From Octopus vulgaris (Eukaryota), in assembly GCA_951406725.2 (NCBI GenBank), contig OX597829.1:6696001-6760000 (forward strand): a DNA stretch of 64,000 nt, given 5' to 3'. This document shows, in pieces, positions 7,120 to 60,325 of the stretch. How positions within the stretch are numbered: position 1 is the stretch's first letter; each line of letters opens with the position of its first letter. The notes under the pieces are model-generated. The model saw nothing but the letters and a program-made list of their open reading frames with translations, did no database searches and was not told the origin of the DNA. Position numbers and translations under genes: made by a program.

Positions 7120-8470
7120 CATTTCTTTAGAGGATTGCTGGTAATCCATCAAGATCCGCGGCTGAGTTTGAGCACATTTCATCAATGGCTAACATCACGG
7201 CTGGTTTCCTCTATTTTGATGCTATAAATAGTTGCCATTTCGTTGTGTAGGGCTGAGAATCCAAAGAACTCATCAGGCATGGCTACTTGCAAATGTTCCA
7301 ATGGAGTGGTGAAAACACTCTTATAATGCATGTCCAGTATCTCACTGATCCTCTAGGGTTCTGCAGTCGGCGAGCCATTTTCTTCGAATAGTGACCCTAT
7401 TTTGTACCGTACTGAAGCAGTCATTTTTGCATATCTGTAGAAGGCTTTAGGGTTTGTCTGTATTTCTGACAGCCCTGGTTTCTTTACCTGTCCCATCTTT
7501 TTCAAGGCAGTGTTTAGGCTCATTCTTGATCTCGAGCAATATTTGTTTGACACTGGATCCATTGCTATTCTTCAGTGGCCCATTTAGAATGTTTGAAGTT
7601 TTTGCTCATCGTTTCATTAGAATCCTCCTATCACTGAGAATTATATTTTTCTGTTGGTTTGGTATTTTCTATGGAGAAAACTTACTGCATAAAGTGTTGT
7701 AACTTTGTCTATATCTACTTGCGTACATAGACTGACAGATCAGTTTCATTCCATTATCTCTTTCTCAATACCCTTCTAATCAGCTTTGTAAAACTTCAGA
7801 CTGGAGTACTGTTGGGTTCCTCTTGTAGCCTACATGTCTGTAGTCTTCTTGAACCATACATTGTTGGTTTTATTAAATTATAGCCCAAAAAACTCGTTAG
7901 TGTCACTTTAACCTTTTTGGATGAGATCCGTGTTATTTGTGAAGCAGAAGTCCAGGATATGTTTCCCCTTTGTTGGGTGGAGCACTATTTGCTCCATAAA
8001 GAGCATGTTCGTGGTGGTTCTTTCAGACATGCCAAAAAGAGACTCTGCATGCCTCAGGCCTGGCAGTGACATACCTGAGAGAAGGCATCCCTCAGACCAT
8101 TCGATATAAGGGAGGTTGAAAGCCCTTAGAAATATGTGCAGGCTGTTATCCAGGTTTGTTGAAACTTCTTTAATTTCTTGGAGACTCTCTTCAAATGAGT
8201 CCCCATGATTTGGAGTGAATGTTGGGCGATAAGTGGTACATATTACTATTTTCATATGTTTAATGTGTACCACCAGATTTTCGCTGAGTACGTTTGGGTG
8301 TGACATCAGGACCACAGGCGTGGCATCTTCTCGAAAGTACAATGCTACTCCAACATGAATTCTTCCTTTCCCGTCAGTTCGAAACACAACATATTTTGGT
8401 ATGTGTATCTCGGCATCTCATATATCCACGTTTAGATGTGTTTCTATTAGCCACTCATACTGATTCATGA
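7120..8470 (-). mobile_element. Decayed CR1-type LINE ORF2 (APE endonuclease plus linker)
   Basis: 7908-8387 reads VGVALY...TYRP...FNLPYIEW...PTKGKHILDFCFTN (APE); KAFYRYAK...IGSL and AIDEMCSNSAADLDGLPAIL match the ORF at 14696. Confidence 0.85.
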
Positions 8471-13480: not shown

Positions 13481-13550
13481 TACGTACATATATATAGATA
13501 TATATATATATATATATATATAAATATATAAATATATATATGTATATATA

Positions 13551-14309
13551 GGCAGGGCTGGCCTGCTAGGCAGCCGGCCGAATGCTAGAAAGAGATCATC
13601 AACGATCAAACACCAGAACCAAATTTGGCGGGCAGGCCAGCCCTGCCTATATACACATATATTAGAATTTTCTCTGACTCCTCAGATTTTTTGAATGCTG
13701 GACTACTGGTTTTAAATTGATATTAAAATTAATATTAATTTATCTCCCTCATTACTTAAATATTGAAATAAATACGTTCCCTAGTAGTAAGCACTAACCG
13801 CAGTGAATTATTCACTGCAGTCCTTCGGTTCAGGATTTTCTTAGCGCGCCAGAGCCAAGACATTTGAAATTTTATCCCCGATGTAAACGGTAAAACTAAG
13901 CACGTGTCTGTCTTGACACAGAGAGCTGGGGTTAGTTTTACAGTTTGCATCTCGATGACCGAATGTACTGATGAAGTCACGGACATTTGAATTATGTAAG
14001 TAATTCTTTTGTTAAAGACCGAAACCGAGGTATGCATTTAAGTCTGTTTTTTATTTAAATTTTCATATGTCCTGCCCGCCAAATTTGGTTCTGGTGTTCG
14101 CTGAATTCTTCCTCTAGAGAATTTCCCTTGTAGTTTGATCGTTGATGATCTCTTTCTAGCATTCGGCCGGCTACCTAGCAGGCCAGCCCTGCCTATATAC
14201 ACATATATTAGAATTTTCTCTGACTTCTCAGATTTTTTGAATGCTGGACTACTGGTTTTAAATTGATATTAAAATTAATATTAATTTATCTCCCTCATTA
14301 CTTAAATAT
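13551..14309 (+). mobile_element. Retrozyme-like element: 546-nt monomer plus ~130-nt partial repeat, inverted 5' segment, within (TA)n
   Basis: 13632-13762 repeated at 14178-14308 (period 546); 13551-13635 is the reverse complement of 14071-14096 and 14134-14193; one HHR in the monomer. Confidence 0.8.
13962..14038 (+). ncRNA. Type-I hammerhead ribozyme motif
   Basis: AATGTA-CTGATGA-aGTC...GACc-GAAA-CC GA GG-TA-TGCATT: 6-bp stem I, canonical core, predicted cleavage after 14032. Confidence 0.8.
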
Positions 14310-14526
14310 AAATATATATATATATAAATATATATATATATAAATATATATATATATAATATATATATATATATATAAATATATATATAATATATATATA
14401 TATATACATATATAAATATATATACATATATATATACATATATATATATATATACAAATATGTATATATATATATAAATATATATATACATATATATACA
14501 TATATAAATATATATACATATATAAT

Positions 14527-30965: not shown

Positions 30966-31029
<64 letters not shown>

Positions 31030-31031
<2 letters not shown>

Positions 31032-31346
31032 ACAATTGAGGGTAAAATTAACTAGTTATTAATCAATTTCACCAAGTAGTGTTCAGTATGTAAAAGGACC
31101 ATTTAAGGCGAATTCAAAATATTACATTATATAATTAGGGCTTAGTAAAATAAATTACTTTGCCACATACTGAACTTTCTAGAAATAGCAGCCAAAAAGT
31201 TTTTAGCCATTTCCACTACTTTAAGAAAACTTCTCTCAGATAATGTTTACTCATAAATAACTCACGAAGGTATGGAGGTAAAAACAGTAAAATATCACAA
31301 GTACAAAGATCATTTGAGAACGTCAACGTTTCTAGATTAGCCGAAA
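31030..31346 (-). mobile_element. Diverged partial copy of the 562-nt retrozyme-like monomer
   Basis: Aligns with 41869-42176, same (TA)n-CAACAATTGAGGGTAAAA junction; stops within the hammerhead (gagaacgtcaacgtttc). Confidence 0.8.
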
Positions 31347-41651: not shown

Positions 41652-41834
41652 GCCTATCTATCTATCTATCTATACATTTACCTACCTATCTATCTACCTA
41701 TCTATCTACCTATCTATCTATATACCTATCTATTTATCTACCTATATATATATAAATGGAGTTTAACGCAGGTAAAAATCAAATACTTTTACTTCCGACA
41801 CATGTTTCGAAGATTTCACTGATATTATTCGAAA

Positions 41835-41868
<34 letters not shown>

Positions 41869-42152
41869 CAACAATTGAGGGTAAAATTAATTAATTATTA
41901 ATCAATTTCACCAAGTGTTCAGTATGCAAAGGGACCATTTAAGGCGAATTCAAATTATTACAATATATAAAAGGGCTTAGTAAAATAAATTACTTTGCCG
42001 CATACTGAACTCATTAGAAATAGCAGCTAAAAAACTTTTTTAAAAAACCATTTCTAATACTTAAAGAAAATCTCTCTCGTATAGTGTTTGGTCAACTCAA
42101 CTCACGAAAGTTTGGGGGTAAAGACATAAAAAAATCAAATGCAAAGGTTATT

Positions 42153-42204
42153 TGAGAACGTACGTTTCAAGATTAGTCATCAAGACACTTCTATCATCAG
42201 CTCA
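42153..42204 (-). ncRNA. Minimal type-I hammerhead ribozyme motif (monomer 1)
   Basis: TGAG-CTGATGA-tAGA..GTC ttgat GAC..TCTt-GAAA-CGTACG-TT-CTCA; palindromic stem III ACGTACGT. Confidence 0.75.
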
Positions 42205-42714
42205 GAAACTCCTTGGTTTGGATTTGAAAACACTGAAAGTGAGAGCATACTCTTTCGGCCTCTCATCGCCTTCGAAGATCTGCTCGTAACTAACAGTGCC
42301 AACAAACTCAAACATGCAAGCGAAGAATTTCTGCCCTCCCCTTTCCACCAGCGTGGGTTAAAATCAACAAACACTCTGCTTATTTCGGTAAAATCCGAAG
42401 CATTAATTAGAGGGAGATTAATTATAATTTCAACAATTGAGGGTAAAATTAATTAATTATTAATCAATTTCACCAAGTGTTCAGTATGCAAAGGGACCAT
42501 TTAAGGCGAATTCAAATTATTACAATATATAAAAGGGCTTAGTAAAATAAATTACTTTGCCGCATACTGAACTCATTAGAAATAGCAGCTAAAAAACTTT
42601 TTTAAAAAACCATTTCTAATACTTAAAGAAAATCTCTCTCGTATAGTGTTTGGTCAACTCAACTCACGAAAGTTTGGGGGTAAAGACATAAAAAAATCAA
42701 ATGCAAAGGTTATT

Positions 42715-42766
42715 TGAGAACGTACGTTTCAAGATTAGTCATCAAGACACTTCTATCATCAGCTCA
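42715..42766 (-). ncRNA. Minimal type-I hammerhead ribozyme motif (monomer 2)
   Basis: Identical to 42153-42204, 562 nt away. Confidence 0.75.
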
Positions 42767-43997
42767 GAAACTCCTTGGTTTGGATTTGAAAACACTGAAA
42801 GTGAGAGCATACTCTTTCGGCCTCTCATCGCCTTCGAAGATCTGCTCGTAACTAACAGTGCCAACAAACTCAAACATGCAAGCGAAGAATTTCTGCCCTC
42901 CCCTTTCCACCAGCGTGGGTTAAAATCAACAAACACTCTGCTTATTTCGGTAAAATCCGAAGCATTAATTAGAGGAGATTAATTATAATTTCAACAATTG
43001 AGGGTAAAATTAATTAATTATTAATCAATTTCACCAAGTGTTCAGTATGCAAAGGGACCATTTAAGGCGAATTCAAATTATTACAATATATAAAAGGGCT
43101 TAGTAAAATAAATTACTTTGCCGCATACTATGCGGCAAAGTATTTATTTACTAAGCCCTTTTATATATTGTAATAATTTGAATTCGCCTTAAATTCCTTG
43201 CATACTGAACACTTGGTGAAATGATTAATAATTAATTAATTTTACCCTCAATTGTTGAAATTATAATTAATCTCCCTCTAATTAATGCTTCGATTTTACC
43301 GAAATAAGCAGAGTGTTTTTGTTTTAACCCACGCTGGTGGAAGGAGGCAGAAATTCTTCGCTCATGTTTGAGTTTGTTGGCACTGTTAGTTACGAGCAGA
43401 TCTTCGAAGCGATGAGAGCGAAAAGTATGCTCTCACTTTCAGTGTTTTCAAATCCACCAAGATTTCTGAGCTGATGATAAGTGTCTTGATGATAATCTTG
43501 AAACGTAGTTTCAAATAACCTTTGCATTTGATTTTTATGTCTTTACCCCAAACTTTCGTGAGTTGAGTTGACCAAACACTATACGAGAGAGATTTTCTTT
43601 AAGTATTAGAAATGGTTTTTTAAAAGGTGCTATTTCTAATGAGTTCAGTATGCGGCAAATAATTTATTTTACTAACCCTTTTATATATTGTAATAATTTG
43701 AATTCTTAAATGTCCCTTTGCATACTGAAACTTGGTGAAATTGATTAATAATTAATTAATTTTACCCTCAATTGTTGAAATTATAATTAATCTCCTCTAA
43801 TTAATGCTTCGGATTTTACCGAAATAAGCAGAGTGTTTGTTGATTTTAACCCACGCTGGTGGAAAGGAGGGCAGAAATTCTTCGCTTGCATGTTTGAGTT
43901 TGTTGGCACTGTTAGTTACGAGCAGATCTTCGAAACGATGAGAGGCCGAAAATATGCTCTCACTTTCAGTGTTTTCAAATCCAAACCAAGGAGTTTC

Positions 43998-44049
43998 TGA
44001 GCTGATGATAGAAGTGTCTTGATGACTAATCTTGAAACGTACGTTCTCA
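43998..44049 (+). ncRNA. Hammerhead motif in the inverted arm
   Basis: Same sequence on the plus strand; a deletion-damaged copy lies at 43467-43513. Confidence 0.7.
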
Positions 44050-44240
44050 AATAACCTTTGCATTTGATTTTTTTATGTCTTTACCCCCAAACTTTCGTGA
44101 GTTGAGTTGACCAAACACTATACGAGAGAGATTTTCTTTAAGTATTAGAAATGGTTTTTTAAAAAGTTTTTTAGCTGCTATTTCTAATGAGTTCAGTATG
44201 CGGCAAAGTAATTTATTTTACTAAGCCCTTTATATATTGT

Positions 44241-44477
<237 letters not shown>

Positions 44478-44501
44478 GAAAGTATATATATATGTATATG
44501 T

Positions 44502-44559
<58 letters not shown>

Positions 44560-58975: not shown

Positions 58976-59022
58976 ATATATGAAAGAATGGAGTTGAACG
59001 ACGAATTAACAAAATTCCTTTA

Positions 59023-59105
59023 TTTTCGACATATGTTTCGAAGGCTGCATATTCCTAATTGCGAAGGAATAAGGAGTATATTATGCCGCTTTCTCATCAG
59101 GAAAA
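59023..59105 (-). ncRNA. Type-I hammerhead ribozyme motif in an inverted PLE pseudo-LTR
   Basis: TTTTC-CTGATGA-GAAAGCGGCAT...ATGCAGCCTTC-GAAA-CATATG-TC-GAAAA: canonical core, G10.1-C11.1 pair, GUC site, palindromic stem III. Confidence 0.8.
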
Positions 59106-59189
59106 GCAAGGAACTTATGTCAACATCAAGATGCACGAAAAACTTTTAGATGACTGCTCACACGGAGCTCATAGTAATAATCACTATCT

Positions 59190-60325
59190 GACAGGATGTA
59201 TAATAGGCAGTATGGGCGTACTGTCCCTTATACCCATCCATTGATGTTGAATTTTGCTGTGGAGAAATATATGGAGAAATGTATATCAACAATGCTGATG
59301 ATCTAGACAACGTTAATGATCTAGAAGCTAACATTTTGGAGAGCATCCAGCAAATAACTAACTCCATGCATCAGAGTATAGAAATAACGATAGACTGCTC
59401 TAGTAAGCATCCTAACTATAGATAACCTGTTTTAGATACTGAACTCTGGCTAGAAACGAAGAACAGTAAGGTTCAGATCCTTCACTCTCATTTCTCCAAA
59501 CCCATGGCCTCTAAATAACTTGTTCTCAAGAACGCAGCGATTGCGGACAACGTCAACTACAACATTCTGAAAGATGACTTAGAGAAAGTGATGAGGTATG
59601 TGTCTGGCATGTGCGATCCTGTGGAATTGGAAAGACACATACAACACTTCATCCACCACATGCAGTTCTCTGGCTACAACTACAGGGACAGGATGAGAGT
59701 GTAAAAAGCAGCCAGGAGGACTAAGTACAAAGCCATCATAGGGAGTGACGCTAAGGAGATTTGCTCGCTGCACAGGAGTAAATCCTAGAACAGCCGGGAA
59801 AGAACCAGTAATAAGATAGATAAGGCCAACACTTGGTATGGCAGCAAAAAATTCCAGAGTGTCCTATGCGGCGAACCAGCATGCCTTTTTAGAAAACATT
59901 AATTAAAGCTAATCTACGAATTAAAGTAGTGGAAAGGCCTGGCGCCCCTTTAAATTTCCTAATCTGCAATACCTATCACTTTGATAAGTACCCCTGTATG
60001 GAGTACAATTGTGTTGTATGTAGGATGAACCCACGGGTTAATTGTAAGGTTAGGAATGTAGTGTGTAGCTTACGATGTACTGAGGGATAGTGCAGAAACC
60101 TGACAACTACCTACATCGGGGGGACTGCACGCAGTATAGGAGCGCATACAGGTGGATCTTGGCGAGAGCTCAATAAAGGGAAAAGCTCGTCAGTACTTTA
60201 CCAACATACTCATGGAACAATTAATAACATAGAGGTTAAAATACTATCGACAAATAGACAGATTACAGAAGCTACATACATAACTGTAGACAGACCGAAC
60301 GTCAATAGAAAACATGAATGGAACA
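59190..60325 (+). mobile_element. Decayed Penelope-like element (RT C-half plus GIY-YIG endonuclease)
   Basis: PVLDTELW, HFSKPMAS, QFSGY, then NCVVC...NCKVRNVVCSLRC...YIGGTARSIG and RQITEATYI...NRKHEW. Confidence 0.85.

Follow-up and report, generated by a model that had tools for sequence, protein, structure and literature searches.

Non-LTR retrozymes are characterized by tandem repeats that each carry a type I hammerhead ribozyme and yield circular RNAs of 170–400 nt, and in the accessible text of PMC7229834 tandem cDNA is proposed to be copied from such circles. The same text describes the axolotl hammerhead HHR_Amex2, whose stem II has a U.U pair at its base; its cleavage is more efficient in dimers, and circles are produced. 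Retrozymes have also been treated as non-autonomous derivatives of Penelope-like elements (PLEs), ranging over 51–972 bp with a mean of 650 in ray-finned fish; according to the available portion of that preprint (bioRxiv 10.64898/2026.07.22.740005), one of nine Xenopus retrozyme dimers is cleaved in vitro, the Xenopus retrozymes match the terminal repeats of PLEs (pLTRs) and local tandem amplification is proposed. The minimal hammerheads of PLEs cleave poorly, and circular templates have been proposed for them in the part of PMC4209133 open to us, whereas the traits attributed to PLEs in sections of PMC8557442 and PMC3846280 are a bias for (TA)n targets, a tail confined to one end and inverted 5′ copies. 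For the anole Poseidon element PAc, the accessible sections of PMC11167929 report that the reverse transcriptase (RT) initiates at two internal positions, the distance between which defines the tail, and extends both strands, that hammerhead cleavage is dispensable in vitro with unprocessed RNA as the main substrate, that hammerhead mutants insert normally, and that no RNA-seq ends fall at the cut.

The window, i.e. the whole 64,000-nt stretch of Octopus vulgaris DNA analysed here, contains a two-armed element between two TA runs with the following features (positions are those of the window).

41836..41866, no strand: (TA)n target microsatellite, left flank
41861..43129, minus (the ribozyme-sense strand): left arm of 2.26 units arranged head to tail, its outer 3′ end lying at fixed site A
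41866..42076, minus: structured end module of ~210 nt, contains sites A and B, common to five families
42153..42204, minus: type I minimal hammerhead 1, GUU triplet, H17 at 42157
42157..42718, minus: predicted 562-nt monomer between the two predicted cut sites, branched rod fold
42425..42638, minus: end module, second copy
42715..42766, minus: type I minimal hammerhead 2, H17 at 42719
43120..43138, centre 43129: exact fold-back, arms meeting head to head at unit positions 139/137
43129..44246, plus: inverted right arm of 2.09 units that ends outward at fixed site B (unit position 87–92)
43468..43512, plus: hammerhead copy damaged by likely assembly deletions
43998..44049, plus: intact hammerhead 3
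44245..44552, no strand: (TA)n target microsatellite, right flank

The first 562-nt unit of the left arm (41868–42429) is followed head to tail by a second of 561 nt (42430–42990; 99.8% identity, a single 1-nt gap) and by a partial third of 139 nt (100% identity), and (TA)n adjoins both outer ends of the element. Site A corresponds to about unit position 556–1 and site B to 85–97 (near 92, 41959), the two being ~96 nt apart. The initial annotation had described 2.25 nearly identical head-to-tail units with two hammerheads at 41868..43128; alignment bears out the units and both hammerheads are real, whereas the inverted arm at 43129–44246, with its third hammerhead, had been missed. A motif scan places the two minus-strand hammerheads precisely 562 nt apart, as annotated, and the predicted new 5′ ends at 42156 and 42718 follow from the H17 positions. 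The tandem is no assembly duplication, as the loci that share its junction are dispersed over many contigs. The absence of a credible ORF likewise holds: the plus-strand frames are short (108 and 96 aa between stop codons, the one in the first unit measuring 105 aa when counted from Met) and have no Pfam match, a Pfam search with the 108-aa antisense frame returning nothing, whereas the longest sense frame spans 37 aa from Met in a unit of GC content 0.35. The element lies between two copies of a 21-nt direct repeat (a TTCGAAAG core and TA), at 41826–41846 and 44474–44494, of which the right one is separated from the right end of the element by ~230 nt of TA. The pair may represent a target duplication that TA expansion has split; such flanking repeats are not general among the other loci surveyed.

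The hammerhead comprises a 4-bp stem I, CUGAUGA, a U.U pair followed by a 3-bp stem II, GAAA, a stem III of 2 bp capped by a palindromic GUAC loop, and a GUU triplet. GUU is a weak hammerhead cleavage triplet and is present in 100 of the 100 copies listed among 2,146 matches to the stem III/I half. In a 410-nt context the predicted pairing probability of stems I and III is 0.07–0.09, and a fold constrained to the hammerhead is predicted to be 3.5 kcal/mol worse than the local optimum; for the 10-nt palindrome an intermolecular duplex of −11.6 kcal/mol is predicted, as the dimer model requires. Rfam gives no match of any kind in the window at the gathering threshold and no hammerhead match at E up to 5, where hairpin-type miRNA/sRNA models alone appear (six on the fold-back and one on the TA run). 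Thus, the hammerhead call rests on the motif and on covariation across families. Contigs from four sequencing runs, taken by guess to be RNA, cover most of the unit, and are given no weight as a sign of expression, the family being high-copy. Two contigs, from two studies, end at 42158/42159; they were likewise set aside, other contigs spanning the position.

The genome searched comprises 2.8 Gb in 227 contigs. It contains 1,365 matches to the exact hammerhead pattern but none to the reversed control, which shows that the hammerhead is not a chance motif. The hammerhead pattern of a sister subfamily, F2, has a further 521 matches, and a motif for the end module that excludes most F1/F2 copies has 4,259. 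Among 100 places listed, variation of the hammerhead falls almost wholly in or beside loop II, and the GUC/GAC stem is mostly retained. The unit itself recurs as full-length copies, 97–99% identical and on many contigs, among the 40 of 1,410 candidates that were scored, in keeping with the genome search that had been suggested for it. The locus is a recent insertion of a young, dispersed, mobile and protein-free family, and within this family it is nothing special; the view that this copy is the best candidate for an active circular-RNA retrozyme is not borne out, as it is one of hundreds with nothing locus-specific in its favour. An older, single-armed relative (83% identical) lies in the same window at 31029–31340, begins at site A in (TA)n and is truncated within the hammerhead.

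The ends of the element were surveyed at 56 loci, consisting of all 49 C1-contig loci among the 100 listed places together with 7 long arrays, all chosen for hammerhead content and hence biased toward longer arms. Arms in two orientations are present at 37 of the 49 C1 loci, and in every one of these the ribozyme-sense 3′ ends face outward. Outer ends at A and B are found in 35 of the 37 two-armed loci and one off-site end in the other two, whereas A+A or B+B combinations do not occur (0/37); the 12 single-armed C1 loci end at A (6), at B (5) or elsewhere (1). (TA)n is present on both flanks at 49 of the 56 loci, and, with regard to target-site duplications, 53 of the 56 have no common non-repeat words in their flanks. 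Two-armed insertions with A and B ends in (TA)n are the ‘tail’ footprint of Penelope elements. The 86 inner ends are scattered around the unit, with 3 located within 5 nt of the predicted cut (1.7 expected), and 36 of 83 arms exceed one unit, the longest attaining 6.1 units. Of the 32 loci of the simple A+B kind, 17 have a B arm that extends further along the template than the A arm, and 9 have the reverse. B arms that outreach A arms imply that two independent primings are needed, and a single primer with fold-back copying, which cannot yield B arms longer than A arms, is ruled out. At the junctions of these 32 loci an overlap of at least 2 nt is observed in 16 and inserted bases in 11, and the arms are joined at an identical unit position in 5 (0.7 expected, p=0.0008), 2 of which join different rounds. 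In most families of alignment A1, sites A and B are situated ~13–18 nt downstream of a CCC motif, a possible positioning signal.

Comparison with the described systems indicates that the element shares with metazoan non-LTR retrozymes its non-coding head-to-tail units, one type I hammerhead per unit, low GC content and coexistence with PLEs. The initial annotation was right to see a retrozyme in it: tandem non-coding type I hammerhead units, a self-paired monomer and dispersed copies make it a non-LTR retrozyme-like element. The U.U pair at the base of stem II, about which it had been cautious, is present and has a precedent in axolotl HHR_Amex2 (accessible text of PMC7229834), as does the 2-bp stem III. 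The unit length of 562 nt, which it had thought unusual, exceeds the 170–400-nt circles of PMC7229834, yet falls within the 51–972 bp given in the available portion of bioRxiv 10.64898/2026.07.22.740005. Unlike metazoan non-LTR retrozymes, the element has two head-to-head arms and two fixed ends in (TA)n and carries a minimal PLE-type rather than a canonical hammerhead, with cleavage and circles here predicted from sequence. In place of the type III hammerhead in LTRs and the 4-bp target-site duplication of plant LTR retrozymes, type I hammerheads, tandem units and (TA)n flanks are found; the insertions end directly in (TA)n, from which we judge that, as in non-LTR retrozymes, LTR, PBS and PPT are lacking. 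The hallmarks of PLE mobilisation are seen as two fixed 3′ ends, an inverted truncated copy and a Neptune/Naiad-like microsatellite target. Like Neptune-clade PLEs, the element exhibits partial tandems, an inverted 5′-truncated copy, a one-sided tail, a microsatellite target, palindromes at inverted junctions and a minimal hammerhead with a palindromic helix III; unlike them it has no ORF, its unit closes on itself and its tail measures ~96 nt rather than 30–40.

In the twin priming of L1, both target ends prime on one RNA and the inverted part is joined by microhomology, whereas here both sites are fixed and internal, poly(A) is lacking and both products can exceed one unit. With anole Poseidon PAc, as far as the accessible account goes, the element has in common two internal start sites that set the tail, extension of both strands and an AT-rich target. 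The strands of anole PAc are, in vitro, alike in start site, whereas the two ends differ in 35 of 35 classifiable loci here, and the start sites lie within a covarying module of non-coding RNA in our element and at the ORF start in anole PAc. At the level of sequence the element behaves like a PLE-mobilised retrozyme; the class of non-LTR retrozymes is already known, and it is the variant anatomy that adds to it. In the retrozyme literature we found neither the two-armed footprint nor the strict count of one site per end nor a shared covarying initiation module, although Repbase or Dfam may list the family otherwise; the word ‘inverted’ does not occur in the available main text of PMC7229834, ‘twin priming’ occurs in none of the 11 papers listed for retrozymes, rolling circles and Penelope, and the accessible part of the cephalopod repeat-annotation paper PMC13282606 contains neither ‘ribozyme’ nor ‘retrozyme’.

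The predicted fold of the monomer is stable both as a linear (z −5.8) and as a circular molecule (z −5.6, −151 kcal/mol), and is 25 kcal/mol better than that of the antisense. Sister families F3, F4 and F7 (L172–L291; 601, 591 and 561–564 nt, respectively) were reached via fragments beside other loci and have a hammerhead of their own each; their units are circularly permuted, and in the loci inspected they form two-armed A+B insertions as well. The five families (561–601 nt, 55–85% identical) become colinear once opened at the predicted cut, with the end module beginning 81–87 nt past it in all five and with stem I compensated in each family (UGAG/CUCA, CCUACG/CGUAGG, CCCAUG/CAUGGG, CUGAG/CUCGG). 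Their consensus fold attains −191 kcal/mol compared with −59 to −75 kcal/mol for six column shuffles, 45 of its 154 pairs are changed on both sides (22–27 in the shuffles), and stem I closes the monomer. The end module alone forms 31 pairs that are 96.9% paired, against 33–45% in slid controls, and has 24 double-change cells against 8.3 when shuffled, a value that none of 500 shuffles reaches and that, the sequences being related, gives no probability. Some of the shuffle z-scores rest on 15 shuffles and are rough. The covarying fold and the compensated stem I suggest, at the level of sequence, that monomer and ribozyme are under selection. F7 comprises GUC as well as GUU subfamilies, in which the units form multi-unit arrays, and one F3 element (L192:220-1480) carries what by eye is a mariner-like transposase sequence inserted at TA.

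The nature of the template may be examined through the divergence among units. Median divergence within a locus is 0.43% in tandem and 0.50% across arms, whereas it is 7.1% between loci; a test against the nearest sampled locus does not discriminate, the within-locus value being lower in 28/57 and 23/56 loci. No effect of register is detected from arm to arm, with 77 differences in 18,597 positions in register (0.41%) and 101 in 21,565 out of register (0.47%, p=0.45). Private alleles, meaning private among 94 sampled loci that were chosen for a hammerhead or full unit and with homopolymer columns excluded, were followed in the 76 loci with at least two rounds: 25 alleles, spread over 20 loci, are fixed, being carried by every round of their locus; 3 alleles, from 2 loci, are mirrored, each occurring in the same single round of both arms; of the others, 6 are present in part of the rounds and 59 in one copy each. 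A variant present in every unit implies that a single monomer was recopied, or that the units were homogenised later. Together with arms of up to 6 units and no excess of ends at the predicted cut, the count of fixed against mirrored alleles favours a recopied monomer as the template, likely a circle, which would be the simplest route. A different case is L120 (G000:C2:167587851-167590873), in which an outer unit of a distinct variant type is mirrored in both arms, with 0 differences in 679 positions between matched units and 13 in 1905 between mismatched ones; this locus requires a mixed (heteromeric) multimer as template. Among fixed private alleles 8 of 34 are sense A>G changes, compared with 5 of 79 among single-copy alleles (p=0.02); as no strand bias accompanies this (A>G and T>C 8 vs 5, p=0.58), RNA editing is no more than a possible reading.

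A candidate enzyme is encoded in the genome. An intact 781-aa frame with RT, CxxxxCxxC and GIY-YIG motifs is present in 16 of 150 listed GIY-YIG matches (6,136 candidates); its copies are 95–100% identical, set in (TA)n and preceded by a 479-aa ORF, and by the linker described in the accessible part of PMC8557442 the family is assigned from sequence to the Neptune type. The element has no RT plus GIY-YIG ORF inside it and is not an autonomous PLE, and PLE protein fragments, seen at 9 of the 241 loci with elements (a total that includes overlapping loci), all fall outside the element spans. The sampled Neptune terminal repeats (50 GIY-YIG loci of 6,136 first-look candidates) have no DNA in common with the unit or the module. 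Footprint and target, by analogy with described PLEs, make a PLE partner, probably Neptune, likely. A loose contig end pursued as a lead to this partner yielded one module remnant, and further partner searches returned more non-coding families and nothing else. This young, intact Neptune-type PLE (L152–L167) has a ~510-nt terminal repeat with CCAAT/TGACGT-like boxes upstream and an apparent tail of ~40 nt, as against ~96 nt in the element, and a motif scan finds no canonical hammerhead in its terminal repeat.

We consider it fairly probable that a Penelope-type enzyme uses a single RNA, predicted to be a circular monomer of 562 nt, as the template on which the two strands of the cut DNA are primed. 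The tandem arm would be transcribed; its hammerhead would cut each unit once, probably in dimeric form by way of the 10-nt palindrome, and stem I would keep both monomer ends together for ligation, as structure and published retrozymes suggest for both steps. A PLE RT-endonuclease acting in trans would then bind the structured module and cut (TA)n, the target observed at the insertions. One DNA end would prime at A and the other at B, ~96 nt upstream on the RNA, in agreement with the observed ends and with in vitro work on PLEs. Each cDNA would circle the template for 0.1–6 units and stop at random, which reproduces the observed lengths, and the two cDNA ends would be joined by microhomology, short inserts or palindromes such as those seen at the junctions. 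In some insertions, an uncut multimer would serve as the template.

An uncut read-through multimer could alternatively be the general template, with twin priming kept, the hammerhead rarely cutting or serving another role, and arrays renewed via template jumps or occasional DNA-level expansion. Normal insertion of anole hammerhead mutants and the lack of RNA-seq ends at the cut (accessible sections of PMC11167929) agree with such a template, as do the weak predicted folding and the mirrored variants of L120 and L113, and the lack of an end excess at the cut fits it equally well. We nevertheless hold it to be rather unlikely, since a linear template cannot give an arm longer than its source and would confine a new variant to one round, whereas 25 private alleles are fixed against 3 mirrored, subfamilies 7% apart each retain 6-unit arms, and five families retain the hammerhead in the same place with a compensated stem I. 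The unit might also be the terminal repeat of an undiscovered autonomous PLE, the arrays being truncated by-products. The ~510-nt size of a Neptune pLTR and the minimal PLE type of the hammerhead (PMC4209133, in the part open to us) are compatible with this proposal, as is the match of Xenopus retrozymes to pLTRs in the portion of the preprint available. Arms that pass from one unit to the following one for as many as 6 rounds, the position of all PLE fragments outside the elements and the absence of the module from sampled Neptune ends render it improbable.

Palindromes can undergo arm-to-arm conversion, and a short insertion might thereby, or by unequal crossing over, have been expanded and homogenised at the DNA level in the manner of a satellite. 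Local tandem amplification has been proposed elsewhere (bioRxiv 10.64898/2026.07.22.740005, available portion) and accords with this origin, as does the capacity of palindromes for conversion between arms. The arrays are, however, short, dispersed and non-integer, ending at random unit positions, the youngest loci are homogeneous too and most junctions are asymmetric, so that such expansion is very doubtful as a source of the arrays. The smallest probability falls to the tandem or inverted arm being an artefact of assembly or of long-read fold-back, which we regard as hardly credible in spite of the exact fold-back at 43129 and an error gradient of deletions in the right arm. Relative to the left arm, the right arm has 57 gaps, nearly all of which are deletions, along with 1 insertion and 2 substitutions; counted from the fold, deletions number 10, 19, 17, 8, 3 and 5 per 200 nt. 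The deleted forms are thinly backed by independent contigs of run X16 (depth 0–84 in two bins, 10^5–10^6 in clean parts), and the junction at 43129 is not among the joints listed for that run. The arm nevertheless stops at the second fixed site of the family, B, and enters a unique flank that does not mirror the left one, and the palindrome is therefore read as real; most loci have asymmetric junctions, and the contigs of run X16 list more than 12 other head-to-head joints. Among the suspected artefacts the deletions alone look artefactual, and they are likely long-read errors inside a real palindrome.

As a more speculative extension of twin priming on a circular monomer, which we advance as tentative, the five families may constitute a superfamily of viroid-like circles of 560–600 nt whose structure is kept over at least 45% divergence, the module positioning a dimeric Penelope-type RT of which each subunit primes one cut end at its own site while circling one template. 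If true, the genome would hold, in its thousands of copies, an in vivo archive of rolling-circle reverse transcription with coordinated twin priming, and the module would be a transferable cis signal that directs insertion to (TA)n. How PLEs build tandem and inverted insertions and what role hammerhead circles have are stated to be open in the accessible parts of PMC8557442, PMC4209133 and PMC11167929. The family supplies thousands of young products as well as two start sites mapped to a covarying module of 210 nt, ribozymes of different strength are available in its sister families (stronger with GUC and a 6-bp stem I, weaker with GUU), and the genome also encodes an intact candidate enzyme; a circular versus a multimeric template and the rule of one site per strand are thereby directly testable.

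Other hammerheads are found elsewhere in the window. An unrelated one on the plus strand (13961–14039; GUA, 7-bp stem I) belongs to a repeat of ~545-nt period at 13550–14310, which is set between TA runs, has a short inverted piece at its left end and looks like another two-armed retrozyme family. Within 58980–59700, a minus-strand hammerhead (59023–59105, GUC) directly follows a long TA run, and the plus-strand sequence after it resembles, by eye, a decayed PLE coding fragment. Finally, a hammerhead-like motif with an AUA triplet occurs on the minus strand at 7219–7280.
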